A stretch of 64,000 nucleotides of DNA, from contig JAURGP010000001.1 in the NCBI GenBank assembly GCA_030833725.1, positions 44,080 through 108,079 on the forward strand. Direction: 5' to 3'. The notes under the pieces were generated by a model that was not told the origin of the DNA, searched no databases, and worked only from the letters and a program-made list of their open reading frames with translations. Origin of the DNA: Candidatus Kapaibacterium sp. (lineage in GTDB: Bacteria > Bacteroidota > Ignavibacteria > Kapaibacteriales > Kapaibacteriaceae). How positions within the stretch are numbered: the stretch's first letter is position 1; every line of letters starts with the position of its first letter. Below are positions 9,324 through 40,860 of this stretch, piece after piece. The position numbers and the translations under genes were made by a program.

Positions 9324-10628
9324 ATGGCGCCGATCATTCTCTGGCGGTACATCCTGCGGTCCATGGTAGGGCCCTTCCTCTTTGGCACGGCCATCATCAT
9401 CTTCATTTTTCTGTCGCAGTACATGATCAACTACCTGCCAAAACTGGCAGGAAAGGGGCTTGGCTTAGACGTCATCGGCGAGTTCATGGTGCTGAACATG
9501 TCGTGGATTCTGGTCCTTGCTGTCCCGATCGGCGTGCTGTTTGCCAGCGTGATGAGCTTCGGAGCGCTGTCGGCTACACACGAGGTTACGGTGATGAAGG
9601 CCTCGGGTATGGGACTCATCCGGATGATGGTTCCGGTGGCTGTTGTTGGAGCCGTTCTTTGGGGAGCTACGTTCTGGTACACCGATAACGTTCTGCCAGA
9701 TACCAACCTGCGCCTGAGTTCGATGATGCAGAACATTCAGCGGTTGAAGCCAACGTTTGCCATCGAAGCCGGGCAGTTCACCACTCAGATCGACGGCTTT
9801 ACCATCTTGGCCCGACGCATGGACAGCACCGGCGTGATGCATGGCATCACGATCTATGATCGTACCAAGCCCGACCGCCTTACCATCGTAAGTGCAGATG
9901 TGGGTCGGCTATCCTTTTCTCCGTCGTACACGCGGTTGATCGTAGACCTTACCCAGGGCGAAGTCCATCAGTCTCGGATATCGGATCGTAAGCCCTACCG
10001 TGTTGTTGAGTTCAACACGCATCGCATTGTGATGCGCGCTGATCGATTCTTCTACGAAAAGCCCGACGTCTCCGGATCGTCGCGTGGGGATCGTGAGATG
10101 CGCATCTCGGACATGCAGGCTATCGTAGATCGCAGTGATTCCATCATCACGGCAGCCCAACACTCCTTTGGGAACCTGCTACACCAACACATCTCCACGG
10201 TGACGCATGCCCCTTCAGCAACCAATGGCGGTGATGGCCTCCAGCAGGCCGACGAGCCGTACAACCGAGCACTGGGCTTGATCACCACCGAGCGCACGGC
10301 CCTAGAAACAGAGCTCTACCGCGAAGATGCCGAGCGACGCCTGTCGAGTCGGTACGAGGTAGAGATTCACAAAAAGTACGCCATCCCGTTTGCCTGTCTG
10401 CTGTTCGTCTTTGTTGGAGCCCCACTCGGCATCCTCACCAAGGGAGGCAACTTTGGCATCAGCGCTGCCATTTCGCTTGCCTGTTACATCGGCTACTGGG
10501 TAACGCTCATCGGCGGAGAGGAACTTGCCGACCGCGGAATGTTAGCTCCCGAGATTGCGATGTGGGCAGGAAACACGTTGTTTCTGGTGATCGGAGTGGT
10601 CACGACGGTGCGCGTGAACAACCGCTAG
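9324..10628 (+). CDS. LptF/LptG family LPS export permease (YjgP/YjgQ)
   Basis: MAPIILWRYILRSMVGPFLFGTAIIIFIF… is the YjgP/YjgQ N-terminus; 434 aa with a large periplasmic loop between TM3 and TM4. Confidence 0.8.
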   Translation: MAPIILWRYILRSMVGPFLFGTAIIIFIFLSQYMINYLPKLAGKGLGLDVIGEFMVLNMSWILVLAVPIGVLFASVMSFGALSATHEVTVMKASGMGLIRMMVPVAVVGAVLWGATFWYTDNVLPDTNLRLSSMMQNIQRLKPTFAIEAGQFTTQIDGFTILARRMDSTGVMHGITIYDRTKPDRLTIVSADVGRLSFSPSYTRLIVDLTQGEVHQSRISDRKPYRVVEFNTHRIVMRADRFFYEKPDVSGSSRGDREMRISDMQAIVDRSDSIITAAQHSFGNLLHQHISTVTHAPSATNGGDGLQQADEPYNRALGLITTERTALETELYREDAERRLSSRYEVEIHKKYAIPFACLLFVFVGAPLGILTKGGNFGISAAISLACYIGYWVTLIGGEELADRGMLAPEIAMWAGNTLFLVIGVVTTVRVNNR

Positions 10629-10642
10629 CGGCAGGTCAACAC

Positions 10643-11806
10643 CTACCACACGAAACGGTTCAACGCCGTATGCGCTCGGGCGAAGGCTTCGTCCATGGTA
10701 GCAGCGGTGGCCGTGAGGTGGCCCATCTTTCTTCCAACGCGGGATTCTTTCTTGCCATAGAGGTGTAACGACACGCCGTCCACCTTGAGCATTTCTACCA
10801 CACTGTCCGGAATGGCACTACCTGATCGCTCGCCTAGCAGGTTGATCATGGCAGCACCACCAACGCGCAACTCCGGCGAGCCAAGAGGCATGTTCGTCAC
10901 TGCACGGATGTGGTTCTCAAACTGCGAGGTAACGCAGGCCTCGATCGTGTAGTGACCGCTGTTGTGAGGTCGAGGAGCAATCTCGTTCACGAAGATCTCA
11001 TCCTTGGGTGTGAGGAACATCTCCACACCAAAAACCCCAACACCATCGATGGTTTCCACGCAGGCAACGGCAATCTCCTGAGCACGCTTCTGCAGCTCTT
11101 CTTCGATGGGAGCTGGTGCCAGTACCGTCACACAGATGTGTCCTTCCTGAATCGTCTGCACGCAGGGATACACCGCTACTTCGCCGCGCTTGTTCCGGGC
11201 CACCATCACAGCCAGCTCTTTGTTGAAGGTAACGAAGCTCTCGGCCATCAAGGGACGAGGTGCCTCGCCTTCCATGAACCTACGCCACACCATATCGATC
11301 TCCGTATCGCGCTTGATCGTGGCGTTACCGTAGCCGTCATAGCCGTGCGTGCGTGTCTTGGCCACAAAGGGATATCCATGCGTGGCACCAAACTGGTGGA
11401 GGTCGTCCTTCGTTGTGATTTCGGCAAAGGTAGCCGTGGGCAAACCCGCTTGAGAGAAGGTGACCTTCTGGGTGTACTTGTCCTGCACGAGGCGCATGGT
11501 AGCCGGCGTGGGATAGACCCGTCGGCGCTCGGCAATGCGATCCAAGATGGCAGGATCGACGAACTCGTTTTCCAGCGTGATGATATCGGATGCTTTCACA
11601 AACGCATCTACCTGAGCCTCGTCATTCCAGCCACCCGGAAACTCGTGCTTCGTCATCCGTCCAGCCGGTGAATCGGCACCGTGCTCGATGATGGCTGCCT
11701 GCATTCCCAATCGATACACTTCCTGGAGTGTCATCTTTGCCAACTGGCCACCGCCGAGGATTCCCAGAGTAAACGGCTCGGACGGCGTGTAGATCGATGG
11801 TAGCAT
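10643..11806 (-). CDS. purK: N5-carboxyaminoimidazole ribonucleotide synthase (ATP-grasp)
   Basis: LGILGGGQLAKM N-terminus and ATP-grasp motifs; 387 aa. PurT cannot be fully excluded. Confidence 0.75.
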   Translation of the reverse strand: MLPSIYTPSEPFTLGILGGGQLAKMTLQEVYRLGMQAAIIEHGADSPAGRMTKHEFPGGWNDEAQVDAFVKASDIITLENEFVDPAILDRIAERRRVYPTPATMRLVQDKYTQKVTFSQAGLPTATFAEITTKDDLHQFGATHGYPFVAKTRTHGYDGYGNATIKRDTEIDMVWRRFMEGEAPRPLMAESFVTFNKELAVMVARNKRGEVAVYPCVQTIQEGHICVTVLAPAPIEEELQKRAQEIAVACVETIDGVGVFGVEMFLTPKDEIFVNEIAPRPHNSGHYTIEACVTSQFENHIRAVTNMPLGSPELRVGGAAMINLLGERSGSAIPDSVVEMLKVDGVSLHLYGKKESRVGRKMGHLTATAATMDEAFARAHTALNRFVW

Positions 11807-12181
11807 TTAGGCAGACTCCTCAATAACAACTACGGCCAGTCCAACCAGTGCCGTGTGCGACAGGCTCACGTGGATCGTATGACTACCCCATCGCTCCAGC
11901 ATCGGACCGAAGAGTTCGATCACGGGCTTTCCTGATGGCTCGTTGCGGATACCAACATTCTTGAAACTCATTCCATCCCGCATGCCGGTTCCAATGGCTT
12001 TGCTGAAGGCTTCCTTTGCTGCAAAGCGGGCTGCAAAATGCAGGAACCGTGTTTCGCCATAGCGGTTGCAGTAGTCGATCTCCGTGTTCGTAAACACGCG
12101 CTGCAGGAAGCGCTCGCCGTATTCAGCGTACGACTTCTCGATGCGCGGCACGTCCACAATATCAGTTCCTAGACCAATCAA
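11807..12181 (-). CDS. acpS: Holo-ACP synthase (4'-phosphopantetheinyl transferase)
   Basis: [15 protein letters not shown]…[10 protein letters not shown] is the AcpS fold. The TTG start overlaps the prfB stop (ATTGA), suggesting translational coupling. The track ORF extends further into prfB. Confidence 0.75.
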
Positions 12182-13282
12182 TGTTGCTGATCCTCGAACA
12201 GGAGATAGGCCTTGATCAACTCGTCCAGATCTCCATCCATCACGCGATGGACATCGGTGATCTTGGTTTCGGTACGGTGATCGTTCACCATCGTGTAGGG
12301 CTGAAACACGTAGCTGCGAATCTGCGAGCCCCATTCAATCTTCTTCTTTGTTCCCTCGATGGCAGCCTTCGCGGCTTCCTCTTCCTCCCGGCGCTTCTGG
12401 TAGAGGCGGCTCTTCAGCATCATCATGGCGCGCTCGCGGTTTAGAAGCTGCGATCGCTCCTGCTGACAGCTCACCACGATGCCCGTGGGAACGTGTGTAA
12501 GGCGCACGGCCGTCTCCACCTTATTCACGTTCTGTCCCCCCTTACCGCCCGAGCGGAAGGTGTCCATCTCGACGTCGGCAGGGTTGACCTCAATCACAAC
12601 GTCGTCGTCGACCTCGGGATACACGAAGACCGAGGCGAAGGACGTGTGGCGTCGGGCATTGGAATCGTAGGGGCTGATGCGTACCAGGCGATGGACGCCG
12701 TTTTCGGCCTTTAGGTAGCCATAGGCATACGGACCGCGCACTTCCAGCGTACCGCTCTTGATGCCAGCGGTATCACCCTCCTGCTCATCAGCAAGGAAGA
12801 CTTGGAAGTTGTGCTGCTCGGCCCAGCGCGTGTACATCCGCAGCAGCATCTCCGCCCAGTCCTGAGCCTCGGTACCGCCGGCTCCTGCATTGATCGTCAA
12901 GATGGCATTACGGTTGTCGTCCGGCCCGGAGAGAATCTTCTTCAGTTCTAGTTCGTCAACAGCCGCAAGACATCGATCCAGTTCGGCGGTGATGTCGGCC
13001 TCCATCGTGGAGTCCTTGGCTTCCTCGCCCAGTTCGATCATCGCCTGAACGTCATCGGTTGCCCTGCTAGCCTGTTGCCAGGAATCTACCCAGTCCTTGA
13101 GGTCGGAGAGTTCACGGCTCACCTTCTGCGCACGCTCCTGGTTGTCCCAGAAGTCGGGTGCAGATTGTAACATCTCTCGCTCGGCAATCTCATCGCGCTT
13201 GCCGTCGATGTCAAAGGTACCTCCGAAGTTGCTCTACGCGAGAGCGGAGATCGGAAAGTGTTTCTTTCTGGGGTTCGAACAT
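12178..13282 (-). CDS. prfB: Peptide chain release factor 2, with programmed +1 frameshift
   Basis: GGQ motif, [24 protein letters not shown] (RF2-type SPF/SPY tripeptide region) and [16 protein letters not shown] frame-0 leader [23 protein letters not shown] from the ATG (CAT 13280-13282) ends at an in-frame TGA. The +1 frame continues as [24 protein letters not shown]… into the track ORF. Confidence 0.9.
13210..13225 (-). other. prfB programmed +1 ribosomal frameshift site (internal SD-like GGAGG + CTT TGA C)
   Basis: The minus strand reads CGG AGG TAC CTT TGA C. This matches E. coli prfB AGG GGG TAT CTT UGA C: an SD-like element 3 nt upstream of the CUU slippery codon, then in-frame UGA followed by C. 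Confidence 0.85.
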
Positions 13283-26460: not shown

Positions 26461-27174
26461 ATGGGTAGAGCATTTGAGTTTCGACGCGCGCGCAAGGAAA
26501 AGCGCTGGGCCAACATGTCGCGCACATTTACAAAACTTGGCAAGGAAATCTCCGTTGCGGTGAAGTCCGGGGGACCGGATCCCGAAACGAATGCCCGCCT
26601 GCGCGTGATCATTCAGAACGCCAAGGCGGCAAACATGCCGAAGGACAACATCGAGAGTGCCATCAAGAAGGCTTCGGCAAAGGATGCAGCGGATCTGCAG
26701 GAAGTCAACTTCGAGGGCTATGCACCTCACGGCGTAGCCATCTGGGTGGAAACCACCACCGACAACAACACACGAACCGTGGCTAACGTGCGGTCGTACT
26801 TTAACAAGGGTGGCGGTCAGCTCGGTACATCGGGATCACTGGAGTTCATCTTCGAGCGAAAAGGCGTGTTTACGATTCCACTGGATGGAGTGGATCGCGA
26901 CTCTCTCGAGATGACGCTCATCGAGAGTGGTGCAGATGATATCCAGGAGCAGGATGGAGAGTTACTGGTCTACACATCGTTTGCAGACTTCATTCCGGTG
27001 CAGCGGGCACTGGAGGCTGCAGGTGTACATGTTTCAACAGCGGAGCTCCGTCGGATTCCCAACACAACAGTAAAACTGTCTGACGAGCAGGCCGAAGACG
27101 TGATCAGGATCATCGACAAGCTCGAGGACGACGACGACGTACAGAATGTGTTTCACAACATGTCGGAAGAATAG
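26461..27174 (+). CDS. yebC: YebC/PmpR family DNA-binding transcriptional regulator
   Basis: MGRAFEFRRARKEKRWANMSRTFTKLGKEI…NARLRVIIQNAKAANMPKDNIE… is diagnostic. Confidence 0.85.
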   Translation: MGRAFEFRRARKEKRWANMSRTFTKLGKEISVAVKSGGPDPETNARLRVIIQNAKAANMPKDNIESAIKKASAKDAADLQEVNFEGYAPHGVAIWVETTTDNNTRTVANVRSYFNKGGGQLGTSGSLEFIFERKGVFTIPLDGVDRDSLEMTLIESGADDIQEQDGELLVYTSFADFIPVQRALEAAGVHVSTAELRRIPNTTVKLSDEQAEDVIRIIDKLEDDDDVQNVFHNMSEE

Positions 27175-28650: not shown

Positions 28651-29301
28651 ATGTCGGAGCGATTGCTTCCCAAACCCAGTCCGTCGGGCTGGAAGTGGAT
28701 CATGGTTGTCCTGGGAATCTTGGGTACGATAGGCGTAACGCTGTCGCTCATCTTCCGCACATACTCCGACAACAACGACCCATCAGTTCGCGAGCGGAGA
28801 CGAAATGCCGAGCAGGTGAGCTATGCCGTCGTGTTCTCTCAGGTTCCTAGTCGTCGTGCCGAGGCCATCATCGAGGGTATCATCACAGATATTGGCGCCG
28901 ACTCGGCCCGCACAGACCTTGTGATTGGTGCAGCGGCTACTGATCCCTGGAGTAAGTCTATCGCTGACTACCGCATTGCACTCAATACGGCAATGGCAGA
29001 CGCTCCAGATCTTCCGATTGGCAAGCAAACTCTCATTCCGTCGATGGTAGCTGGTTTACTGTTTCAATCGGAAATGCCAGCGCGTCTCTACCTCATCGGT
29101 ACGATTGCCGACACGCTGAATGGTGCAGTGCAGAAGCGGACCCAAGAAACGGCAAAGTCACTGCGATTGCGGAATGCGTCACGGGCGCCAGTCCACGTGA
29201 TCTCATACATGGACACCACGGTGGTACGTAATCGGGAGTACCTACAGGTGCTTCGTGGAATAGGTCTCGACGTTGAACAGCGCGAGATCACTTTGCCGTA
29301 A
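28651..29301 (+). CDS. Hypothetical membrane-anchored protein
   Basis: Single N-terminal TM segment (WKWIMVVLGILGTIGVTLSLIF), 216 aa, no recognisable motif. Its 3' end overlaps the convergent vWA-OmpA gene by 14 nt. Confidence 0.4.
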   Translation: MSERLLPKPSPSGWKWIMVVLGILGTIGVTLSLIFRTYSDNNDPSVRERRRNAEQVSYAVVFSQVPSRRAEAIIEGIITDIGADSARTDLVIGAAATDPWSKSIADYRIALNTAMADAPDLPIGKQTLIPSMVAGLLFQSEMPARLYLIGTIADTLNGAVQKRTQETAKSLRLRNASRAPVHVISYMDTTVVRNREYLQVLRGIGLDVEQREITLP

Positions 29302-30667
29302 TCACGATCTCCGTGCGGCGGTTGAGACGCCGTCCGAATTCCGTGCCATTGGATGCAATGGGCTTACTTGGGCCGAATCCCTGGCTTTCGATACGCTCGG
29401 CAGAGACACCTTTGCGGATGAGGTAGTCGCGCACGCTGTCGGCACGACGTTTCGACAGAGCGTTATTCACGGCCATGGATCCCACGTTGTCCGTATGACC
29501 CTCTACCCGGATGCGTACCGTTGGCCGCTGTTTCATGAACTTGATCAAGACGTCCAGTTCCTCTACGGTATCCGGCAGATCTGCGCTATTGGTCTTGAAG
29601 AGGAGGTTCTCTATGATGAACTTTCTTCCGATTTCTACAATCGGGACCTTTTGCTGGACGAGCTCTCGCTTGTTCTCATCCAGAATGCTCACGTTGATGG
29701 AGTCTTTCTTCAGCGTCGCAGCATCCGACCGGTAGGTGATGGCATACAGGTTGGTGATCTGCGTAGAGTAGTTATCAAGAATCTGGGCGAACGGGTGGTT
29801 GATGTTGTAGAGCGCTCCCTTGGTTCCGCGTGTGAGCTTGGTGTACTCATCCATCTCCGGTCGCACAATACAGAATGTCTTGATCGCCTCACTGTTCATG
29901 AGGCGGATCATAGTGTTGGTTGTGTGGCTCGTTACGCCCGAGCCCCCTTCACCTGATTGATGGTATGGGGCATCCGTCACAAGTACGGCTACGCGATTGG
30001 CAGCGGGACGAAACTTGATACGCTTCAACTCGGCAAGGGCTTCAAGGGCATTCTCCTTTTCATCGAATCCACCGTTGGCCTTCAGGAGCTCCAGCCAATT
30101 GAGAAATGTGGACACGTCATCAATCGGTTGATTGACCGTTTCTACGATGTCCGTAAACGTGATCAATCCCAGGCGGTAGTCGATACCACGCTGTTGCAGG
30201 GAGTTCGTGAAGTTTCGGACATTGGCTTTGATGTCGTTGATGTAGCCCTGCATCGTACCGGTAACGTCCACGAGGAAGATGAAGTCGACTGGAACCTGCG
30301 CGCCTTGCTGAATCTTCGCAATGCTGACAACCTGTTTTTCGATGTTGTTTTCGCGCACGAAGAGATTCTCCGGACGCAAGGTGTCGAGGTTGACATCTGA
30401 ACCAGGATACATCTCGCAGATGAGGGTGATCTGCGGAAATTTGGAGATGTCTACGTTTTGAACGATGATGCGGAGCTGCTTGCCAGGAGCTGTCTTGAAT
30501 TCCGCCTGCTCCGCGTGCAGTTTGATGCGCTCGAGAGAATCCTTTCCGCTCTTGGCGGCAGGACGCTGGGCAGCCAGTGGAACCACCAGTAGCACGGTTA
30601 AAAGCAAGACGGGCCACCCCAAAAAGGGTCGCCCGTTCGATACATGTTGTGCTGATGATGGGGTCAC
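29288..30667 (-). CDS. Secreted von Willebrand factor A domain + OmpA-like C-terminal peptidoglycan-binding domain protein
   Basis: Signal peptide; vWA MIDAS region DFIFLVDVTGTMQGY…; C-terminal OmpA motif …RIRVEGHTDNVGSMAVNNALSKRRADSVRDYL…RRTEIVI. Confidence 0.7.
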   Translation of the reverse strand: MTPSSAQHVSNGRPFLGWPVLLLTVLLVVPLAAQRPAAKSGKDSLERIKLHAEQAEFKTAPGKQLRIIVQNVDISKFPQITLICEMYPGSDVNLDTLRPENLFVRENNIEKQVVSIAKIQQGAQVPVDFIFLVDVTGTMQGYINDIKANVRNFTNSLQQRGIDYRLGLITFTDIVETVNQPIDDVSTFLNWLELLKANGGFDEKENALEALAELKRIKFRPAANRVAVLVTDAPYHQSGEGGSGVTSHTTNTMIRLMNSEAIKTFCIVRPEMDEYTKLTRGTKGALYNINHPFAQILDNYSTQITNLYAITYRSDAATLKKDSINVSILDENKRELVQQKVPIVEIGRKFIIENLLFKTNSADLPDTVEELDVLIKFMKQRPTVRIRVEGHTDNVGSMAVNNALSKRRADSVRDYLIRKGVSAERIESQGFGPSKPIASNGTEFGRRLNRRTEIVITAK

Positions 30668-30695
30668 GTGCGTGATTCCGCTGCATCACTCCGGA

Positions 30696-32213
30696 TTAGA
30701 TGGAGAAGCGAATGACCGGAGAGATCATGAAGAAGCTGTTGAAGTCGAATGGTCGCAGTTCGGTGCGGAGGTTCGTAGCGTACTTTGCTTCGAGATACAG
30801 CCACTGACCAACAATTGGAACGAACACGCGGCCCATAAGTATCTGATTGGCAATCTGTGCCGAAACGCCGAAGGGGCGACCAGCCTGATTGAAGTACTCG
30901 ATCTTGGCATACACCCAGTCCAATGCCTCGGTTGGGTGATACAACTGAATACCACGAGCATCGGAGATCAGGCTGAAAGTGTTCACACCTGGCGTACGTT
31001 GCCACAATGCGGTTTGTTGCACTTCACTGTACACCATGCCCAAGTCGATGCGGAAGAAGTTATCGGGATTCGCGCGGTCCGGCCACCAGTTGTAGAACAG
31101 CGACACGCGACCCGTCCCACGAAGGAGGTAGATGGTGCTATCGGCGTACCGTCCGGTAGGAGGCACGTCGGTCACCAGCGTGTTGTACGGCACGTAGGTT
31201 TCAAGGTTCGATATCTCGGTGCCTTCGCCCAGACCTTGAAGTGGAAGTTCGGCATGGAAACTCAAACCAAACTCTTCCATAGTTGGCACGTTGAAGTCGA
31301 ATCCGGCAACAGCCTTCCCACCAGGACCTGCATCCAGAAGACGTGGTGCAATAAAGTCCAGAATCTGATTGTCGCCCTCGATGCCACCCGTGATGCGGTA
31401 GGCCATGCCGAGCCGAAGAGACAGGATGCTTGGTAGGGCGCGGTTGTTGTTTGGATTCTTGTTGCCGATGGGATTGATGCGCAACGACACGCGTCCTTCA
31501 CCAGACGTCCAGAAGGGCATACCAACCATGTCGGTACCCAGTTCCGATAGGAGCCACACTTGACCAGGACCCTGACCGAGCTTCAGTGCCTGCTCAAAGG
31601 CAGAGATGCTCATTGCATGCGTCTTGGTTGTGGGTTGGAAGAAGTTGACCATCTCGTTGACTTCTTCCTGCGTTGGCATTTCCTTCGGATCGATCGGATA
31701 GAAACAGTACGAGCGTGCTGGTACGTCCAGATCGTATCCCTGTGCATCTGCCTGACCAGAGATCAGGTTGACGAGTCGCTCTGGTACCCGCGTACGGATG
31801 TCCTGGGCGTTCAACGTCACGTAGTCTGGAGCCTGGCCAGGGGCGAGGTCGGCGTTTGCACCTTCGTGGAACGAACCCCATTGAATGAGGAGGATATCGT
31901 ACGGCTTATCCATTTCATCAACGGACTTGGGTGCAGCCGTAATACGGATCTCGCCATTCAGGTTTGCTGGTCTACGTTCGTTGATCGTAAACACATGCTT
32001 GAGCTTCACGGCTATGTCGGGCTCGCACAGCTTCCAGCGCGGGAAGTACGACACGAGGTTTTCGTCGATCGTAGTAAGAGCCTGCATCGCGGCATCGCGC
32101 TTTGCACTGAGTTCTGTACCACCAAGATTGCGCTGTGCCGAAGCAGTTCCGGCAACCAGAGCAAGCAGAACGAACGTTAGAAGTACTGGTGTGCTTTTCA
32201 TTCTCATGTTCAT
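30696..32213 (-). CDS. Hypothetical secreted protein (505 aa)
   Basis: N-terminal signal peptide MKSTPVLLTFVLLALVAGTASAQ; β-rich; no recognisable catalytic motif. Confidence 0.45.
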   Translation of the reverse strand: MNMRMKSTPVLLTFVLLALVAGTASAQRNLGGTELSAKRDAAMQALTTIDENLVSYFPRWKLCEPDIAVKLKHVFTINERRPANLNGEIRITAAPKSVDEMDKPYDILLIQWGSFHEGANADLAPGQAPDYVTLNAQDIRTRVPERLVNLISGQADAQGYDLDVPARSYCFYPIDPKEMPTQEEVNEMVNFFQPTTKTHAMSISAFEQALKLGQGPGQVWLLSELGTDMVGMPFWTSGEGRVSLRINPIGNKNPNNNRALPSILSLRLGMAYRITGGIEGDNQILDFIAPRLLDAGPGGKAVAGFDFNVPTMEEFGLSFHAELPLQGLGEGTEISNLETYVPYNTLVTDVPPTGRYADSTIYLLRGTGRVSLFYNWWPDRANPDNFFRIDLGMVYSEVQQTALWQRTPGVNTFSLISDARGIQLYHPTEALDWVYAKIEYFNQAGRPFGVSAQIANQILMGRVFVPIVGQWLYLEAKYATNLRTELRPFDFNSFFMISPVIRFSI

Positions 32214-32216
32214 GCG

Positions 32217-34301
32217 TTAGAAGTTCCAGACAATGCGCGCTGTGGGAATAAAGACTGTCGACTGCTCCCACGGGCGAGGATCCCGCATTGCAGTCCAGAA
32301 CCATTGCCCTTCCAGACGAAGAGCCAGAAGCGCTGATGATTGAACAATAGGGAACTGGAAGTAGAGGTTGCCACCAAGTGTGCGATCGAAGTAGTTGATC
32401 GAACCCCCAAATGGTGTACGTCCACTTGTACTCATGAATTCAATGCGACCCGAGAAGTCGAAGATCGTCTCACTATCGATCTCTTCGTATAGCACTTCCT
32501 GAGGGTTGAGCGTGTCTTCGCGAGTGGACCACGTCTCGGCGATGTACATCGTTGGGCCCAAACCGAAGCGGAATTGGAATCCCTCATCGATCGACAAGGC
32601 AAACGTGTACTGCAGACGTCCGGTCATCCGAACGAGGTAGTCGTTAGAAGGCGTTGTGGTCAGGAGTTCTGCTAGCGTACCAGGGTGGGTACCGAAGTCT
32701 GACTTCGTCGCGTCGCCAAACACGTAGGAGAATCCAAAGTTGAATACACCACTGTTCTTGAACAGCGACGTGGAGAAGTTCAGGTCGGTTGCGATACCGC
32801 CGTAGGACGGCTGGGTGAAACGACGCGTTGCAAAGTTGCTGGCCGTGTTCGACCAGAGGCCGTTCGGCAGGATCACACCCAACTTCGCGTCACCCAGCGT
32901 ACCATCGCCGTACACGTAGCTTACGGTGGCACGTTCCGACCAGATCGACGGATAGTTGATCTGATCAAGACCATAGCGCAGTTCTACGCCGGATACGGGC
33001 AGGTTCTGGTTGGCGTAGTAGTCTGGTCCAAGGTCAGCAGAGAGTTCTACATCTGCATACTTCCGTTGACCGCTTGCTGACATCACCACAAACTTCAAGT
33101 CCTGGCCAGGAATAGCATCATTCATGATTGCAGCTACACGGTTCTTGTTGTCCGACGATACGGACTTACCGTTGATGGCTGTAATCACGTCCCCTACTTC
33201 CAGTCCAGCAGATTCGGCTGGGCTACCCGGTTCCACCGACACGACCACTTCAGTGTTCGTGCGTTCGCCACCCATTTCCTGAACCTTAAACTCCGTTTCG
33301 GCACCAAGGTATCCGAAGGCATTAGCCAGTTGTGATTCCGACGGTGCGTACCTGCGCCAGCTCACGAGGTCATAGCCCAGGATGATCTCGTTCTCGCGGT
33401 TATACTTGAACGCCTGACCCTGCGACACACGTTGATAGGACTGAATCTCTGACGTTGTAGCGCGCACCTTGGTTTCGTCGCGGAAGTTTTCAAGGGGCTT
33501 TACGATTCCGGTTTCCTGACGCTGCAGGATAATGTTGTCGATTTCTTGGAGGTCCAGCGTGCGGTCGCGGTAGCTACCCTGCTGAACGAGGTCACCCAGA
33601 AACTGATCCATCGAAAAACGCTCATCGAGTTCCGGACGCTGATCTTCGCTCTTGGCGATGAGCGTGCGGAACATCTTCATGTTCATGGTGTAGTCTGCGG
33701 CTGCCTTGTCTTCCAAGGAGCGCTGCAGGTAGATGTCGTCCAGCATCATGGCTTTGTCGAACTGCACACCCTGCAGGTTTGAGGTGAGTTTGCCACCTAC
33801 GCGCTTGGCTGGAAGCAGACCGATGTACACTTGCTGTGAGTTGTTCTTCTTCCGGGTGGTGATCAGGAAGAATGCATCAGGGTTGTTGTCCTCGGCACCC
33901 GAGGCCAGCGACAGCTCTACAGCTTCATCGATGGCAGCATTGTATTCTTCAAACGACACCTCGCCGGAGTTTCGCATCTCCGTGATTTCCTGGTTGTTGT
34001 TCGCCTCGTCGACAAGACTGAGACGATCCCCGGGATTCTTGCTCGCGATGGCGGATAACAATGCCAAGAGCTTAGCGTTCTTGCTTGTGCCAGCAGCAGA
34101 CTTCTTCGTTTCTTCCTTGAAGAACTCACGAAGCTTCGCACTGTAGTCACCGGATACTTCAAGAACCTGAATGTTACTGTACTTGTAGTTCCGGTAGTTC
34201 TGAAGGATTGAGCGCAGGTTGGCATCGTCGGCGTTCATGCGAACGGACGGGACCAGCATCACTGCGATCAGAAGCCCGAAGAGGGCAGCCCGTGGATTCA
34301 T
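32217..34301 (-). CDS. PDZ domain-containing putative outer-membrane β-barrel protein
   Basis: Signal peptide (MNPRAALFGLLIAVMLVPS); central PDZ (…GLEVGDVITAINGKSVSS…); C-terminal β-rich region ending …IVWNF (terminal aromatic typical of OMPs). Confidence 0.5.
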   Translation of the reverse strand: MNPRAALFGLLIAVMLVPSVRMNADDANLRSILQNYRNYKYSNIQVLEVSGDYSAKLREFFKEETKKSAAGTSKNAKLLALLSAIASKNPGDRLSLVDEANNNQEITEMRNSGEVSFEEYNAAIDEAVELSLASGAEDNNPDAFFLITTRKKNNSQQVYIGLLPAKRVGGKLTSNLQGVQFDKAMMLDDIYLQRSLEDKAAADYTMNMKMFRTLIAKSEDQRPELDERFSMDQFLGDLVQQGSYRDRTLDLQEIDNIILQRQETGIVKPLENFRDETKVRATTSEIQSYQRVSQGQAFKYNRENEIILGYDLVSWRRYAPSESQLANAFGYLGAETEFKVQEMGGERTNTEVVVSVEPGSPAESAGLEVGDVITAINGKSVSSDNKNRVAAIMNDAIPGQDLKFVVMSASGQRKYADVELSADLGPDYYANQNLPVSGVELRYGLDQINYPSIWSERATVSYVYGDGTLGDAKLGVILPNGLWSNTASNFATRRFTQPSYGGIATDLNFSTSLFKNSGVFNFGFSYVFGDATKSDFGTHPGTLAELLTTTPSNDYLVRMTGRLQYTFALSIDEGFQFRFGLGPTMYIAETWSTREDTLNPQEVLYEEIDSETIFDFSGRIEFMSTSGRTPFGGSINYFDRTLGGNLYFQFPIVQSSALLALRLEGQWFWTAMRDPRPWEQSTVFIPTARIVWNF

Positions 34302-34368
34302 GTATCGATGTTCCTTAGAAGTAGAAATGTTCTTCACGTACTCGTGCTGCAGGTTCACCTTGCGGTGA

Positions 34369-36672
34369 TTACCGGCGGCGTCCTCCACGGCCACCACGAC
34401 CACTCTTTTCGATCGGCACATTCACCGAAACGCTCACGGGCTTATTGCTCACGCCACGTTGCTGGTTGTTCGGATTCGTGATCGATCCCCGAGCCGTCAA
34501 ACTGATGCTACCCGAAACGGACGTCACGTCGCGGTCGATATCACCACTGATTTCCAGACGCACCCGGTACAAGCCATCGCCTTCTTCACTCACACTGGAG
34601 GAGATCACCGGTGCGGTGATACCACGCAAGGAGTTGCTGTTGACGATGATTTGCGGAGTAGCAATCTTCGCCGAGGCCTCGTTGGTCAAGTTAGTTGGCT
34701 TGGTGATCTTCAGCACACCCGTCACCTCGATCACGCTTCCCGTTTGGTACGCATTAACGTTGGTGAGTTCGCGGGCAATCGTTGGACCTTCCTGCTTCAC
34801 CGGAATGTTGTCGATGTCCAACAGCGTGACCTTTTCGCCCCGTTCGTTCTGCCACAAGAACTGCAGCGAGTAGTTGGTAGCTTCTTCATCAACCTTGACG
34901 GTAGCACCCAAACCGCGCTCTACCACTGGCTGTGATTGCTTGTTCGACTTGATGGCTACGCTATACTGCTTCGCCGGAACGTTACGAACAGCTGCAGCCT
35001 CGGAAGCACCCGTGAGCGCGTTAAAGGTAAGCTGGCTGCCGTAGTTCGCCTCTGCCAAACGTGCTCGCATGTTCTGAACATACGTTGGGCTGGATGGATC
35101 CTCTAGTTGACCCTTGTACACGCGCAGTGTGGCTTGCTGGACATCCTGTTTGCCGGACGTTCGCTGCGTAACACTCACCGTCCACTCACCCTCTGTGAGG
35201 GGCGCTGTGGTGTAGGCTAGCCAGCGATTCGTACCGGCAGCAACTGGCGTGCCTGACGAGGCTACCTGATCACCCGTTCCCTTCCGTTCGAACTGCAGAG
35301 CAATACGCTGGCCCTCCTTCTCCATGTAGCCTTCAGGAGCAGGAGTGGTTGGTAGGGCAGGACCCGTGGAAAGGTAGAAGGCCCCACCCACCCCGGCGTG
35401 GGCATACATGCGGGTGTTGTCGTACTCTACGAATGGGTCAGCCGTAGGAATGTTCGGCTTTACCACGCGAACCGTAAAGCCGAGGCTTGCTTGATTCTGC
35501 GACAGATCGACAAAGCCCCCTGGCTGAAGAATCATATTGATATAGCCATACAGCTTAGCCTCGCGGGCCATGTCGGGCTCATCCTTAAGAATCTCCTGGA
35601 CCCGCGCAGCAATAGCGTCGGCATACTCGCTGCCGCGCATCTGCCCATTCTTGAACTTCTCGGTGGCCTCCTTGACAACTTCATCTGTCATCGTCCGGTC
35701 CAGTTCCTTGAGTACGCTCTTCAGATCCTTGACCTTCAGCTGCACGGTACCAATGTTGATCTTCTCGTCGTCGCTAGCTTCGCTGGGCGCACCATTCGGA
35801 TCTGCCTTGATACCAAGAATCTTGTTGGTGCGTGAGAAGAAATGCAGCTTGTAGATACCGGTCTTTCCTGCCGGCTTGAAACGGGCCATGAAGGAGCGCA
35901 CCTTCAAGTTGGATGGTAGACGGTTGGTGCCAGCCGGATCGACCGTAGCCGGATGGCTGTACTCGAACTGCACCTTACCTTCAGCATTATTCCAGAAGCT
36001 GCGATAGTTGCCCTTTGGTTCATCGAGGGTATACACGGGCGACTCGTCTCGGAACCAGCCCTGTGCTTCCTTGAGACTCAGCGGCACAGAAACGGAGGAT
36101 GTCCACTCTTTGTCGAGAATTGCACGCTGATATCCTTCCAGCGTCCAATTGTTAATCCGTGAACCAACGCCAGCATTACCTGTGGACAACGCTGAGTCAA
36201 TACTACGGTCGCTGGGGAAGGCTGGAACTTCATCGGAGTTGTCATCCGTGTGCCAGATCTGGTAGTAGATCTCACGCACGTTCGACGCCAGTACGAAGTC
36301 CTTCAGACGTTGCTTCTTTTCGTTATCCGACAGACGCTGATCCTTGATCACCTTGGAGAGGTCGTTCATGACGTCTGTGACGCCAACTTCAACCACGTAC
36401 TCGCGATCTTCCTTGATCAGGTTCATGCCAGGGGCACTGGACCACGATGCGTCTTTCAACACGATCTGGTCTTGCGGCCTCGTGCTCAAACCCTCCACAC
36501 CTGTACCCGTTTGCAGCTGCGAGAGGATCGACTGAACGATCTTCATCGACTCCTTCTGCTTAGCGATCAGGTGCTCTTCTGCCTCGTCGCGCTCCACGAT
36601 GATAATGAGGAGCTCGAGGATCACAGCGAGATACAGCACGAAGTATACTTTTCCGGCTCCGCCTTTTGACAT
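34369..36672 (-). CDS. Bitopic inner-membrane protein with large periplasmic domain (767 aa), function unknown
   Basis: Short cytoplasmic N-terminus MSKGGAGK, one TM helix (VYFVLYLAVILELLIIIV), helical then β-rich periplasmic regions, Gly/Arg-rich C-tail (GRGGRGGRRR); good SD (GGAGGT) before the ATG. Overall architecture weakly reminiscent of GldM/PorM- or TolA-like periplasm-spanning proteins. Confidence 0.5.
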   Translation of the reverse strand: MSKGGAGKVYFVLYLAVILELLIIIVERDEAEEHLIAKQKESMKIVQSILSQLQTGTGVEGLSTRPQDQIVLKDASWSSAPGMNLIKEDREYVVEVGVTDVMNDLSKVIKDQRLSDNEKKQRLKDFVLASNVREIYYQIWHTDDNSDEVPAFPSDRSIDSALSTGNAGVGSRINNWTLEGYQRAILDKEWTSSVSVPLSLKEAQGWFRDESPVYTLDEPKGNYRSFWNNAEGKVQFEYSHPATVDPAGTNRLPSNLKVRSFMARFKPAGKTGIYKLHFFSRTNKILGIKADPNGAPSEASDDEKINIGTVQLKVKDLKSVLKELDRTMTDEVVKEATEKFKNGQMRGSEYADAIAARVQEILKDEPDMAREAKLYGYINMILQPGGFVDLSQNQASLGFTVRVVKPNIPTADPFVEYDNTRMYAHAGVGGAFYLSTGPALPTTPAPEGYMEKEGQRIALQFERKGTGDQVASSGTPVAAGTNRWLAYTTAPLTEGEWTVSVTQRTSGKQDVQQATLRVYKGQLEDPSSPTYVQNMRARLAEANYGSQLTFNALTGASEAAAVRNVPAKQYSVAIKSNKQSQPVVERGLGATVKVDEEATNYSLQFLWQNERGEKVTLLDIDNIPVKQEGPTIARELTNVNAYQTGSVIEVTGVLKITKPTNLTNEASAKIATPQIIVNSNSLRGITAPVISSSVSEEGDGLYRVRLEISGDIDRDVTSVSGSISLTARGSITNPNNQQRGVSNKPVSVSVNVPIEKSGRGGRGGRRR

Positions 36673-36728
36673 TGCCTACCTCCTGGCGTTCTAATGTGTT
36701 GCCGATGCTGGGAATCCAGTACCGGCGT

Positions 36729-36764
36729 CTGTCAACGTATCTGTCAACGTATCTGTCAACTTAC
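36729..36764 (-). repeat. Three tandem 12-bp direct repeats, each containing a TTGACA hexamer, 57-92 bp upstream of the 767-aa gene
   Basis: Plus strand ctgtcaacgtat ×2 + ctgtcaacttac; the minus strand reads GTAAGTTGACAG ATACGTTGACAG ATACGTTGACAG. Confidence 0.85.
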
Positions 36765-37123
36765 TTGTTTGGAGTTGCCGTCTTCTCAGCAGCTGGCATG
36801 GACGTCGTGGACGTCATCGCCGTCTTCTTGGCGGTTGACGAGCAGCACGAAGCACCTGCCGACTTACTCTTCTTGGTTACCGTTGATGCTTGAGTTGTTG
36901 CTTCAGCGGTTGATGAACATTCTTCGGTTGTGGAAGCCTTTTTGGCCGCCGGAGTTACCGTTTCCGAAGAAGTTGTTGCAGCTGTGGACGTGGTCGAGCA
37001 GCACGAGGCCGAAGCAGTGCCCTTGCCCTTCTTTGAATCACCACAGGCTGCATTTGCCGTAACTGCCAATACTGCTAGGGACATAGCAGCTACTACAAAG
37101 AGACGCGTTGTTGTTTTCATCAC
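36761..37123 (-). CDS. Small Ser/Thr/Ala-rich putative lipoprotein with paired-Cys (CC) motifs
   Basis: Signal peptide MMKTTTRLFVVAAMSLAVLAVTANAAC (lipobox-like). The mature part is low-complexity S/T/A/K-rich with an internal duplication carrying SCCS motifs (ASASCCSTTSTAATT… / …SAGASCCSSTAKKT…). Confidence 0.45.
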   Translation of the reverse strand: MMKTTTRLFVVAAMSLAVLAVTANAACGDSKKGKGTASASCCSTTSTAATTSSETVTPAAKKASTTEECSSTAEATTQASTVTKKSKSAGASCCSSTAKKTAMTSTTSMPAAEKTATPNK

Positions 37124-37343
37124 AACACCTTGTGTTAATGGTACGATGGCGTATCAAATATCACGCCACAGATGCATGTAAAATAGTTTCCTGCTGCGGC
37201 TTATCCAAAGACTATTCCTCAGGCTATACCTCGGGCTATTCCGCAGACGATTCCTTGCCGTAGCCCTCCATCATAGAGACAGCCCTGCATCTGGTTGAAC
37301 CACATACAGGGCTGAGTGACGTCATGTGATTGGTAGCTGTTTC

Positions 37344-40300
37344 TTACGAGCATCCGCTTGTGGTGCCGCAGTCGTCACAGACCGTGCAGCTACCGTTTCG
37401 GCGCACATTCGTGGAAGCACAGTTTGTACACGTATCACCGGTGTAGCCAAGCTCGCGAGGATCAACCTTTGCACGCACGCCATTCATCTCACGCGTTTGC
37501 TGACCATGAACATCTACGCTGGTCGGTGGTACGTAGCCGATCGGATCGGAAACTCGTACGGCATTGGCTGGTACGTCTGTGTCAGGGGGCTGAATGGATG
37601 CCGGTGCAGGGTTCAACTCGTCCACGGCCTTGACGTGCACAAAGTCGGTGCGGTTGAGATAATCGTAGCCAAGCGTCCGGAACACGTAGTCCAGCACGGA
37701 CGTTGCGTTCTTGATTGCCTCGTGACCCTCCACAAAGCCCGCCGGTTCGAATCGGGTGAAGGTGAAGGTGTCCACCATCTCCTCGAGCGGAACTCCATAC
37801 TGCAGTGCCTTTGATGCAAGCACAGCAAAACAGTTAAGCAAGCCCTTGAAGGAAGCCCCTTCCTTGTACATGTCGATGAAAATTTCGCCAATCTGGCCGT
37901 CTTCGAACTCACCCGTACGGAGGTAGACCTTGTGGCCACCAACGTTGGCTTCGCGCACGTAGCCGTGACGACGCTTCGGCAAGCGCCGGCGTTCTGCACG
38001 GTGGTACACACGTTCCTTGATGACTTCGTAGACTTCCTTGGGACCCTTGGTCTCATCGAGTGTGTCTTCGTCGCCCAGCATGACGATTTCGTCGAAGCTG
38101 TCGGCACTGGCATTCAGCGGCTGAGAGAGCTTTGAACCGTCACGGTACAGAGCAATGGCCTTGACCATCAGACGCCAGGACTCCATATGCACTTCTTCCA
38201 CTTGACCAACGGTGGCCTCGGCAGGCATGTTGATCGTCTTGGAGATCGCACCGGAGATGAACGACTGGGCAGCAGCCATCATGCGAACGTGGGCCATGTA
38301 ATCGATGTAGCGCTGACCCTTCTTGCCACACTTGTTGGCACAGTCAAAGACAGGTAGATCCGCATCCTTGATATGTGGGGCACCTTCGATGGTCATGGTG
38401 CCACAGACGTAGTCGTTGGCGTAGTCGATCTCTTCCTTGCTGTAACCCAAGCCCTGAAGGACGCTGAACGATGGATCGTCGAGTTGTTCAGTGGTGAAGC
38501 CCAGGCTATGGCAGAGGTCGTCGCCCAACGTGTATCGATTGAACACGAAACGGATATCGAAGGCCGTGTCGAGCTGCTGCTCGATCTTCTCGATCACCTC
38601 GTCGGTGAGCCCCTTTTCCTTCAAGCTCGACTTGTTGATGAACGGGCATGCAACGAGTGTTCCGTGACCCTTGCAATACTTCTCGATATCCTCGATCTCG
38701 CTCTCGCTGTAGCCCAGCTTGTGGAGGGCCTTGCTGACGGACTGATTCACAATCTTGAAGTAGCCACCACCGGCCAGCTTCTTGAACTTGACAATGGCAA
38801 AATCAGGCTCGATACCCGTGGTATCGCAGTCCATCACCAAGCCAATGGTACCCGTAGGGGCAATCACCGTGGCCTGAGCATTACGGTAGCCATACTGCTC
38901 GCCTAGGGCCAGTGCTCGATCCCACGCTTCCCGTGCTGGACCAATCAGGTGGTCCGGGCAGTGATCAGCGCTAATCCCCATTGGCGTGATCGTGAGACCT
39001 TCGTATTCCTCTTTGGTGGCGTTGTATGCTGCACGCCTATGGTTGCGAATCACGCGGAGCATGTCTTCGCGGTTATGCTCGAATCGTGGGAAGGGCTTGA
39101 CGTCCCGTGCCATCTCTGCCGATGTGGCGTAGGACTCGCCCGTCAGGATCGACGTTAGGGCACCAGAGATTGCCAAAGCTTCGGGCGAATCGTATGGAAC
39201 GCCCATCACCATCAACACCGTGCCAAGGTTGGCATATCCCAGACCCAACGTGCGGAAATCGTAGCTACGGCGGGCCATCTCCTTGGATGGGAACTGCGCC
39301 ATCAGCACCGAGATCTCCAGTGTGATGGTCCACAGGCGAATCGCATGCTTGTAGTCGTCTACGCGGAAGGTACCCGTCTGCTCATCGTAGAAGTGACCAA
39401 GGTTGATCGATGCCAGGTTACAGGCCGTGTCGTCCAGGAACATGTACTCCGAACATGGGTTCGAAGCATTGATGCGACCATCCGTTGGGCAGGTGTGCCA
39501 TTCGTTGATGGTTGTATCAAACTGCAGACCTGGGTCGGCGCTCTTCCACGACGACATGTTGATCTTGTTCCACAGGTCGCGTGCCCGCACGGTACGATGC
39601 TTGGTAGCATCGGTACGCCACACAAGGTCCCACGTGGTATCGTTGACGACAGCCTCCATGAAGCTGTTGGTGACGCGTACGGAGTTGTTCGAGTTCTGAC
39701 CCGACACCGTGTTGTACGCCTCGCCTTCGTAGTGCGTATCGTAGGAGTCGAAGTTCAGGGATGTAAAGCCTTGCTCTACAAGGGCCAGTGTCCGCTTGAT
39801 GTAGTTGTAGGGGACGCCGCGATGCAATGCACGCTGAATAAGCATGCGCAGTTCAGGATTGGACTCCGGATCGGCACCGTTCGTATGGGCTTCGTCGGTG
39901 ATGGCCTTCAAGAAGGTGGAGCACACCTTCGAGCCGGACACCAGGGCTGCAACCTTTTCTTCTTCCTTGGCCTTCCACTCAATGAACTTCTCGATATCCG
40001 GGTGATCGATGTTGACAATCACCATCTTGGCAGCACGACGCGTTGTGCCACCACTCTTGATGGCTCCGGCTGCGCGGTCGAACACCTTCAGGAAGGACAT
40101 CAAACCCGACGACACGCCACCACCGCTCAAGCGCTCGGTTTCACCACGCAGGTTAGAGAAGTTCGACCCTGTACCAGATCCAAACTTGAAGATGCGGGCT
40201 TCACGTGTGGCGAGATCGAAGATGCCGCCTTCGTTCACGAGGTCGTCTTCTACCGATTGAATGAAGCAGGCATGGGGCTGAGGATGTGTATAGGCATCCT

Positions 40301-40814
40301 TGGAGCGCGTCATCTTCTCGGTATCCGGATCTACGTAGTGGTGACCCTGAGCCGATCCAGTAATGCCGTAGGCAAAGGCCAGACCCGTATTGAACCATTG
40401 CGGAGAATTTGGTGCGGCCATCTGCTTCAACAGCATGAAGGCCATTTCATCGTAGTACGCTTGAGCATCCTCGGCCGTATCGAAGTAGCCATACTTCTCG
40501 CCCCACCACCTCCAGCATCCGGCCAAACGGTGCACTACCTGACGCACCGATCGCTCCGGACCGGTCACAGGTGCGCCGCTTTCATCCAGAAGGGGCTCTC
40601 CCTGGTCGTTTACCTGAGGAACACCGGCCTTGCGGAAGTACTTCTGAGCAAGAATGTCCGTAGCTACCTGCGACCACTGCTTGGGCACCTCGATGTCGTC
40701 CATCTGGAAGACCACGGAGCCGTCGGGATTACGGAGAATGGATGAACGACGTGTGTACGAGAACTGCTCGTAGGCACTGGAACCCGCCGTTGTAAAGCGT
40801 CGCGCAATGTGCAT
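37344..40814 (-). CDS. nrdJ: Adenosylcobalamin-dependent ribonucleoside-diphosphate/triphosphate reductase (class II RNR)
   Basis: N-terminus MHIARRFTT…[22 protein letters not shown] (hallmark of B12-dependent RNR), active-site region …[21 protein letters not shown]…, C-terminal Cys cluster ([22 protein letters not shown]). SD GGAGGA 5 nt upstream of the ATG (CAT 40812-40814). 1156 aa; no intein hallmarks seen. Confidence 0.9.
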
Positions 40815-40829
40815 GGATCCTCCAAGGTG

Positions 40830-40860
40830 CAAAAAATGGTGAAGCCCCCTCCCCACCATC
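40830..40860 (-). promoter_or_regulatory. Terminator-like hairpin + U-run in the nrdJ 5' leader, immediately upstream of its RBS (candidate attenuator)
   Basis: The minus strand reads GATGGTG GGGAGGGGGCTT CACCATT TTTTTG, then CACCTTGGAGGATCC ATG. A 6-7 bp stem, 12-nt loop and T6, sitting in a leader of more than 300 nt. Confidence 0.3.

Follow-up and report, generated by a model that had tools for sequence, protein, structure and literature searches.

Do five consecutive genes in the genome of an uncultured bacterium encode the parts of one apparatus that crosses the cell envelope, or are they unrelated neighbors? The question is raised by a 64,000-nucleotide (nt) stretch of contig JAURGP010000001.1 (assembly GCA_030833725.1) from Candidatus Kapaibacterium sp., hereafter the window, in which an original prediction made from the sequence alone had described five minus-strand genes for secreted and membrane proteins and had proposed that they form a trans-envelope unit. 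All five open reading frames (ORFs) were found (table 1), and we refer to them, in the direction of transcription, as E, A, B, C, and D. The locus is a real, tightly conserved operon, whose conserved unit consists of the four genes A-B-C-D, with A-B-C as the core in the deepest relatives. The explanation that we favor, with middling confidence, is that these genes encode a complex specific to one lineage, the Kapabacteria-type Bacteroidota, which is anchored to peptidoglycan and connects the inner with the outer membrane, a function that we infer.

Conservation and Gene Order of the Cluster

More than 600 homologs of A were detected, all of which are labelled hypothetical; the metagenome-assembled genomes (MAGs) that carry them are labelled Kapabacteria, Ignavibacteria, or Chlorobiota. 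A scan of one genome per species yielded 256 relatives, and at least 256 species-level genomes from an uncultured lineage of the Bacteroidota group contain the module. The organism of the window is a Kapabacteria-type MAG, and the Rhodothermota frame used in the original prediction has to be dropped. A MAG annotated as "Candidatus Kapaibacteriota" holds proteins 100% identical to B and C. Among 80 cluster-carrying genome records, 12 are titled "uncultured Hyphomicrobiales," and other odd titles include Desulfobulbaceae, Chloroherpeton thalassium, and Melioribacter roseus; the carriers with such titles (L007, L025, L034, and L051 among them) are probably mislabelled MAGs.

For the analysis of synteny, 86 loci were fetched, their ORFs were called, and these were searched with the window proteins. 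Family A was found in 82 of the loci, B in 77, C in 73, and D in 68. All 63 non-redundant loci that hold the four families show them on a single strand in the order A-B-C-D, and the median intergenic gaps are 51, 23, and 89 nt for A-B, B-C, and C-D, respectively. Loci that lack a family are mostly contigs ending early, the exceptions being L039 and L059, in which other genes follow C. The syntenic orthologs of A are ~30% identical, and the flanking genes vary from lineage to lineage. Clustering of this kind is far beyond chance, and a conserved order amid turnover of the flanks is typical of subunits of one assembly. Homologs in related genomes are thus strictly syntenic, which at ~30% identity and with differing flanks supports the view of a functional unit rather than of unrelated neighbors. 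The proposed unit of five genes has to be narrowed: A-B-C-D are colinear, and E is a clade-restricted accessory. Distant variants of A with a length of 541–640 amino acids (aa) are also followed by B-like and C-like genes.

Besides B, C, and D, the recurrent neighbors in the 86 loci (10 kb on either side) are NrdJ, found upstream in 24 loci, and an HD-domain protein, found in 17. All-against-all clustering of the same regions revealed no further conserved partner family in more than 24 loci, and no gldL/gldK/gldN, exbBD, or tolQR genes were found near the cluster within this range.

Searches of Pfam, NCBIfam, PADLOC, and PHROG with the five proteins, their isolated domains, and ten distant relatives returned VWA, OmpA, PDZ, and phrog_11383 and nothing else. 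In NCBIfam, the window proteins gave only partial OmpA and PDZ matches, below the family cut-offs. PADLOC and PHROG yielded no anti-phage defense or phage family beyond the OmpA domain of D and phrog_11383 in B. No enzymatic family was matched in Pfam or NCBIfam, in keeping with the earlier remark that none of the products has an enzymatic motif. Judged by their sequences, A, B, and C fall outside any family described in Pfam, NCBIfam, or the PDB, and none of the three belongs to an unrelated characterized family. Literature searches found no description of an A-B-C-D cluster.

Gene A Encodes a Predicted Inner-Membrane Rod Protein

An AlphaFold2 (AF2) model of A (predicted local distance difference test [pLDDT] 80) has a helix at residues 6–54 with a transmembrane (TM) segment at about residues 9–27, followed by an α/β domain (68–313), a helical bundle (314–389), three immunoglobulin (Ig)-like β-sandwiches (~394–520, 545–625, and 637–753), and a GR-rich tail. 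The model agrees with the earlier description of a 767-aa bitopic protein with a long helix, a periplasmic part that is helical and β-rich, and a GR-rich end; 35 of 63 non-redundant orthologs have this tail. In L007, the closest relative, A is split into two overlapping ORFs (10001–11242 and 11227–12459, within 10001–12459 of that locus), which we attribute to a frameshift or an assembly error.

The most conserved part of the protein is its N-terminus. Compared with 32 orthologs, the first 65 residues of A have a mean identity of 87%, against 31% for the remainder. This region reads MSKGGAGKVYFVLYLAVxLELLIIIVERDEAEEHL… and continues as an acidic juxtamembrane coiled coil. Nearly all positions of the TM helix are invariant, whichever face they lie on. 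The helix contains a buried glutamate (Glu20), followed by Arg28 and Asp29; in 33 orthologs and every distant variant, Glu20 is retained. Third codon positions in the conserved 5′ stretch are only 42% identical, indicating that selection acts on the protein; a cause at the RNA or DNA level was ruled out on the same ground. The invariance of all TM faces, together with a buried carboxylate, suggests that the helix is surrounded by other protein, which could be either an oligomer of A itself or an ion-conducting stator ring encoded elsewhere.

The N-terminal motif also heads the 541–640-aa variants and some proteins of ~250 aa. Two of the latter, P0396 and P0398 (JGI sample 3300075153), have the same invariant TM motif. 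One of them lies among genes that encode, in order, proteins of 290, 248, [247], 373, and 636 aa, for none of which Pfam gave a match, and a scan of one metagenome found no DNA context for the ~250-aa motif proteins. A domain in the center of A (GWYKLRFxSRTNxILGV…VNIGTVQL) also matches P0390 and P0391 (~800 aa), which end in Por_Secre_tail, implying that this subdomain also occurs in proteins that are likely secreted.

Pfam searches with full-length A (E ≤ 0.1) detected no match, including to GldM, TonB_C, or TolA domains, and five fragments covering residues 1–320 and 390–767 gave none at E ≤ 10; residues 321–389 (the helical bundle) were scanned against Pfam only within the full-length protein. 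Ten distant relatives of A had no Pfam match to GldM, and NCBIfam had no match in A. The MotB_plug and ExbD models of Pfam and NCBIfam did not match A, and a profile of its N-terminal helix found no MotB/ExbD/TolR-type chain in the PDB. When the PDB was queried with A, B, C, and the N-terminal helix, by sequence as well as by profile, nothing meaningful came back. Structural matches of A include tandem-Ig proteins such as ICAM, KIT, and VEGFR, with no GldM or PorM among the matches. A profile searched against 1.84 billion representatives had only 255 matches, including the shorter variants with the N-terminal motif, and no annotated family was reached from these. Comparison of A with B and C revealed no shared domains.

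The original prediction had likened this protein to GldM/PorM, TolA, and TonB, a resemblance that holds for the gross architecture and fails for domains, structural matches, and neighboring genes. Like A, GldM and PorM are bitopic proteins with the N-terminus inside, whose cytoplasmic tail is very short and whose TM helix is strongly conserved; in them, a helical region is followed by a string of Ig-like domains directed toward the outer membrane, and their hosts also belong to the Bacteroidota group. In contrast to them, A has no sequence or profile similarity to these proteins, contains an additional α/β domain that separates the TM helix from the helical bundle, and is not linked to gldL, gldK, or gldN. 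In GldLM, two GldM helices lie within a GldL pentamer and the essential glutamate (Glu49) is on GldL (PMC8986121), whereas in A the protonatable glutamate is on the single-TM protein itself.

With MotB, ExbD, and TolR, A shares a single TM helix that bears a conserved acidic residue (Glu20), but neither membership in their models nor an adjacent MotA/ExbB/TolQ gene was found for A. The Tol-Pal and TonB-ExbBD systems resemble the cluster in combining an inner-membrane-anchored protein that spans the periplasm, and whose TM helix is highly conserved, with an OmpA-like peptidoglycan binder and outer-membrane barrels. Unlike their spanning proteins, A lacks TolA_C, TonB_C, a Pro/Lys/Ala-rich spacer, and a SHLS-type motif; the operon is also without a TolB-like β-propeller, tolQR, and exbBD, and D differs from Pal in having a VWA domain and in not being a lipoprotein.

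Genes B and C Encode Paralogous, Predicted Outer-Membrane Barrels

The start of B is most likely Met41 of the longest ORF (nt 34301), since both the orthologs and the signal peptide of the resulting 694-aa protein point there; with this start, B would not overlap A, and a gap of 67 nt remains. After its signal peptide, the protein has a periplasmic N-domain, then a PDZ insertion of ~100 aa, and finally a C-terminal β-barrel ending in …NF. An alignment of B orthologs (A3) shows conserved barrel motifs and the C-terminal Phe, and homologs of B include P0121–P0126. The PDZ domain (residues 378–460 of the long ORF; PDZ_6, 46.7 bits in Pfam) lies between the N-domain and the barrel, and a match to phrog_11383, a family of unknown function, covers residues 335–420 at the insertion (E = 3.8e-5). 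PDZ is present only in B of the window and its close relatives (P0121–P0124) and is absent from 27 more distant orthologs of the A3 alignment. The description of this protein as a PDZ-containing barrel is therefore right for the window and not for the family, in which PDZ appears to be a clade-specific insertion.

Gene C had been described as a secreted protein of 505 aa; its signal peptide was found, and the protein proves to be a predicted outer-membrane β-barrel paralogous to B. In the AF2 model (pLDDT 85), the signal peptide is followed by an N-terminal α/β domain and a β-barrel at about residues 199–505. The N-domain has an invariant YFPRW..CE motif and a pair of cysteines (Cys63/Cys170). 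Pfam detected no match in C, nor in E. In structural comparisons, C comes closest to FadL, PorV, TodX, and BamG, the last being FadL-like subunits in complexes of Bacteroidota; the 14-stranded barrels of FadL, PorV, and BamG are thus the best fold matches for the C barrel and, by homology, for B. The barrels of B and C align with each other with 94.8% probability (hhalign, E = 5e-8), and in the most distant locus both genes downstream of A match the C profile, which implies that B and C are paralogous two-domain outer-membrane proteins. Both have the attributes of outer-membrane β-barrels (a closed antiparallel barrel, a signal peptide, and an aromatic C-terminus), and both can be described as generic 12–14-strand barrels with family-specific N-domains.

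Gene D Encodes a VWA and OmpA Protein

The fourth protein of the unit, D, contains a signal peptide without lipobox, a small N-domain, a VWA domain, and OmpA_C. That it combines VWA and OmpA, as had been predicted, was borne out by Pfam: the OmpA domain (residues 356–450) scores 76.6 bits against a cut-off of 27.2, and VWA_2, VWA_4, VWA, and Integrin_beta are all above cut-off. No cysteine follows the signal peptide in D of the window or in 24 orthologs inspected.

The metal site of a MIDAS (an adhesion site that depends on metal ions) is formed by residues of the pattern D-x-S-x-S…T…D (PMC9946355). In D, the corresponding residues D134, T136, and D232 are present in all 65 orthologs, and S/T138 in 60 of them. 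The position of the middle Thr is occupied by Asp202 in 59 of the 65, and the site is therefore a variant MIDAS.

The best partial matches of D in NCBIfam are YiaD, PA1041, LptF, CHU_0125, and PorE. At full length, D misses every family cut-off, for example those of YiaD (117 vs. 175), Pal (71 vs. 125), and PorE (77 vs. 600), and it was rejected as an equivalog of Pal, YiaD, or PorE, the scores being far too low and the matches confined to a domain of ~100 aa. In PADLOC and PHROG, the matches likewise concern the OmpA domain (the C-domain of ZorB/MotB and OmpA-like PHROG families). A genuine C-terminal OmpA_C domain is thus common to D, PorE, Pal, YiaD, and MotB, whereas the architecture of a small N-domain plus VWA is found in none of the latter.

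A Possible Envelope-Spanning Assembly and Its Alternatives

The claim that the gene products reach from the inner to the outer membrane is consistent with their predicted locations, namely the inner membrane for A, the periplasm and peptidoglycan for D together with the soluble domains of A, B, and C, and the outer membrane for the barrels of B and C. Together with the strict co-inheritance of the genes, these locations favor a bridge between the two membranes. As to physical contacts, stoichiometry, energy coupling, and biological output, what follows is what we infer.

In the proposed assembly, A would be anchored in the inner membrane by its invariant single TM helix and would oligomerize through the adjoining coiled coil. 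From an α/β-plus-helical base, its rod of three Ig-like domains would reach across the periplasm and meet the periplasmic N-domains of B and C, paralogous barrels that probably form a hetero-pair. D would be fixed on peptidoglycan by OmpA_C and brace the assembly, and its VWA/MIDAS-type site may clamp an acidic ligand on one of the partners. A might in addition be coupled to an unlinked, ion-driven stator and, in the manner of GldM, TolA, and TonB, transmit force or a conformational signal outward to the outer membrane; since no stator partner is encoded nearby, energy coupling stays at the level of a hypothesis. The output could lie either in tethering and integrity of the outer membrane or in powered transport or motility.

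Several observations weigh against such a bridge. D is not beside C in two typical loci (L039 and L059), and after the distant variants of A it is present in L088 and L093 and not in L087, L091, and L092, which belong to one distant lineage; its absence from these loci implies that the peptidoglycan anchor is not obligatory. Lengths of A range from 541 to 830 aa, which speaks against a ruler of fixed length. No MotA/ExbB/TolQ/GldL-like gene is conserved within 10 kb of the clustered loci. The acidic TM residue of A is in the periplasm-proximal half of the helix, unlike those of MotB, ExbD, and TolR. Finally, all carriers are uncultured MAGs.

It is possible, though we consider it unlikely, that the bridge is a powered trans-envelope machine, in which a dimer or oligomer of A would sit in an ion-conducting stator ring (a paralog of GldL, ExbB, TolQ, or MotA, or a new one) and its Ig rod would move a B/C platform braced by D.

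To a similarly small chance we would put a module for outer-membrane transport or export. B and C would then act as channels or shuttles of the FadL/PorV type, their substrate being hydrophobic or bound to the surface. A would be a periplasmic adaptor or scaffold that delivers or gates this substrate, and D a part that positions the module at the wall, with no force transmitted from the inner membrane. FadL, PorV, TodX, and BamG are the best matches of C, which would suit such a module; the conserved soluble N-domains of B and C could be plugs or docking sites, and the cluster has no linked motor gene.

We regard as improbable an adhesion or gliding machine similar to the Agl-Glt focal-adhesion complex of Myxococcus, whose barrels would hold a VWA/MIDAS adhesin while A couples to a motor encoded elsewhere. 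In the Glt system, a VWA/MIDAS lipoprotein interacts with the outer-membrane platform GltABCHK (PMC9946355). The parts of the two systems agree, with paralogous barrels (GltA and GltB; also GltH), a conserved VWA/MIDAS-type protein (CglB), and bitopic proteins that span the periplasm (GltG/GltJ), a likeness of parts lists. D lacks a lipobox and has OmpA_C, so that it is expected to be periplasmic and bound to peptidoglycan, whereas CglB is a surface lipoprotein. Moreover, A has no TonB_C domain in Pfam, conserved agl- or glt-like neighbors were not found within 10 kb, and the AglRQS motor and many other Glt parts have no counterparts in this cluster.

Co-regulation of envelope proteins that do not form one complex, for example stress-induced outer-membrane proteins plus a peptidoglycan binder, likewise has little likelihood in our view. 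It would explain why D is dispensable in some lineages, but gene order, short gaps, and co-presence are kept in 63 non-redundant loci at ~30% identity while the flanks turn over.

Least likely is that A represents a GldM/PorM that has diverged very far and that the cluster is a derived module of type IX secretion or gliding: the common plan of short cytoplasmic tail, single conserved TM helix, helical region, and Ig-like domains, and the Por_Secre_tail proteins (cargo of the type IX secretion system [T9SS]) encoded near the cluster in several loci, would fit, but membership is largely refuted, as domain models, structural matches, and operon partners all fail.

Gene E and the Surroundings of the Cluster

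The coordinates of the features discussed here are given in table 1.

Table 1. Features of the cluster and its neighborhood, numbered from the first nucleotide of the window.
Feature	Position	Strand	Description or basis
Gene E	36761–37123	−	ORF, 120 aa, Cys/Ser/Thr/Ala-rich, CC pairs
Gene A	34369–36672	−	ORF, 767 aa, predicted N-in bitopic inner-membrane protein
Near-invariant N-terminal 65 residues of A	36478–36672	−	Ortholog alignment
Ig-like rod of A, aa 394–753	34414–35493	−	AF2 secondary structure and tandem-Ig matches
Gene B	32217–34301	−	694 aa; longest ORF extends to 34421
PDZ insertion in B	33042–33290	−	PDZ_6, PDZ_2, and PDZ above Pfam cut-off
β-barrel domain of B	32220–33011	−	hhalign to C barrel
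Gene C	30696–32213	−	505 aa, predicted outer-membrane protein
Gene D	29288–30667	−	459 aa, predicted periplasmic, VWA + OmpA
VWA domain of D	29768–30286	−	Pfam
OmpA_C peptidoglycan-binding domain of D	29318–29602	−	Pfam
nrdJ, B12-dependent ribonucleotide reductase	37344–40859	−	Upstream of E, same strand
216-aa single-TM protein	28651–29301	+	No family match; convergent to D, 14-nt overlap

E had been called a Cys-rich S/T/A lipoprotein. A signal peptide is present, but the predicted cleavage site has no canonical lipobox. E-like genes were found in eight loci (L007, L011–L014, L016, L037, and L043), that is, in the subclade of the window and two other loci, and by this distribution E appears as an accessory gene outside the conserved core. 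The family consists of small, secreted proteins rich in Cys, Ser, Thr, and Lys, with conserved SCCS, GASCST, KEC, and GSCCS motifs, and in every case the gene is the one directly upstream of A. These proteins may act in metal or thiol chemistry or serve as a modified peptide.

Directly after the stop codon of E and before A, 2.8 tandem copies of GTTGACAGATAC, each with a TTGACA, occupy positions 36727–36760 on the minus strand. The GTTGACAGATAC repeats are inside an insertion of 55 nt that is absent from L007, where A is 97% identical and the gap between E and A is ~33 nt. In most loci inspected, a Shine-Dalgarno sequence of the GGAGG/GGAG/AGGA type is located ~6–10 nt before the start of A; apart from it, no shared promoter or regulatory motif was seen upstream of A in these loci, and the results of sigma-70 and terminator scans were below shuffle expectation.

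Directly past the nrdJ stop codon, a hairpin with an 8-bp stem (CAGCCCTG…CAGGGCTG) and without a T-run is found at 37280–37314 (minus strand), and it may separate nrdJ from the E-A-B-C-D transcript. NrdJ (1171 aa, class II) has a TSCPD domain and, at residues 295–358, a sub-threshold YebC_N-like stretch; a genuine YebC gene is located nearby at 26461–27174 on the plus strand. On the other side, purF and the gene for the 216-aa membrane protein are the convergent downstream neighbors of the cluster. The 216-aa protein is kept at the same position in 12 loci, mostly closely related ones, and is probably not part of the system.

Implications for Envelope Biology

There are few assemblies that span the envelope (Tol-Pal, TonB, the T9SS motor, Agl-Glt, Lpt, and Tam are examples), and every one of them has defined a field. 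Conservation of all faces of a TM helix together with a buried carboxylate, as in A, is otherwise seen in force-transducing subunits. If A-B-C(-D) proved to be driven by a stator, it would be a new output of 5:2-type motors, independent of GldM, TonB, TolA, and MotB. If the four genes encoded no more than co-regulated outer-membrane proteins, the finding would be of local interest. If they do encode a complex, it would either staple the outer membrane to the wall and the inner membrane in a new way or constitute a new motor output, and in either case A, B, and C would be three new protein families that deserve profile models and annotation.

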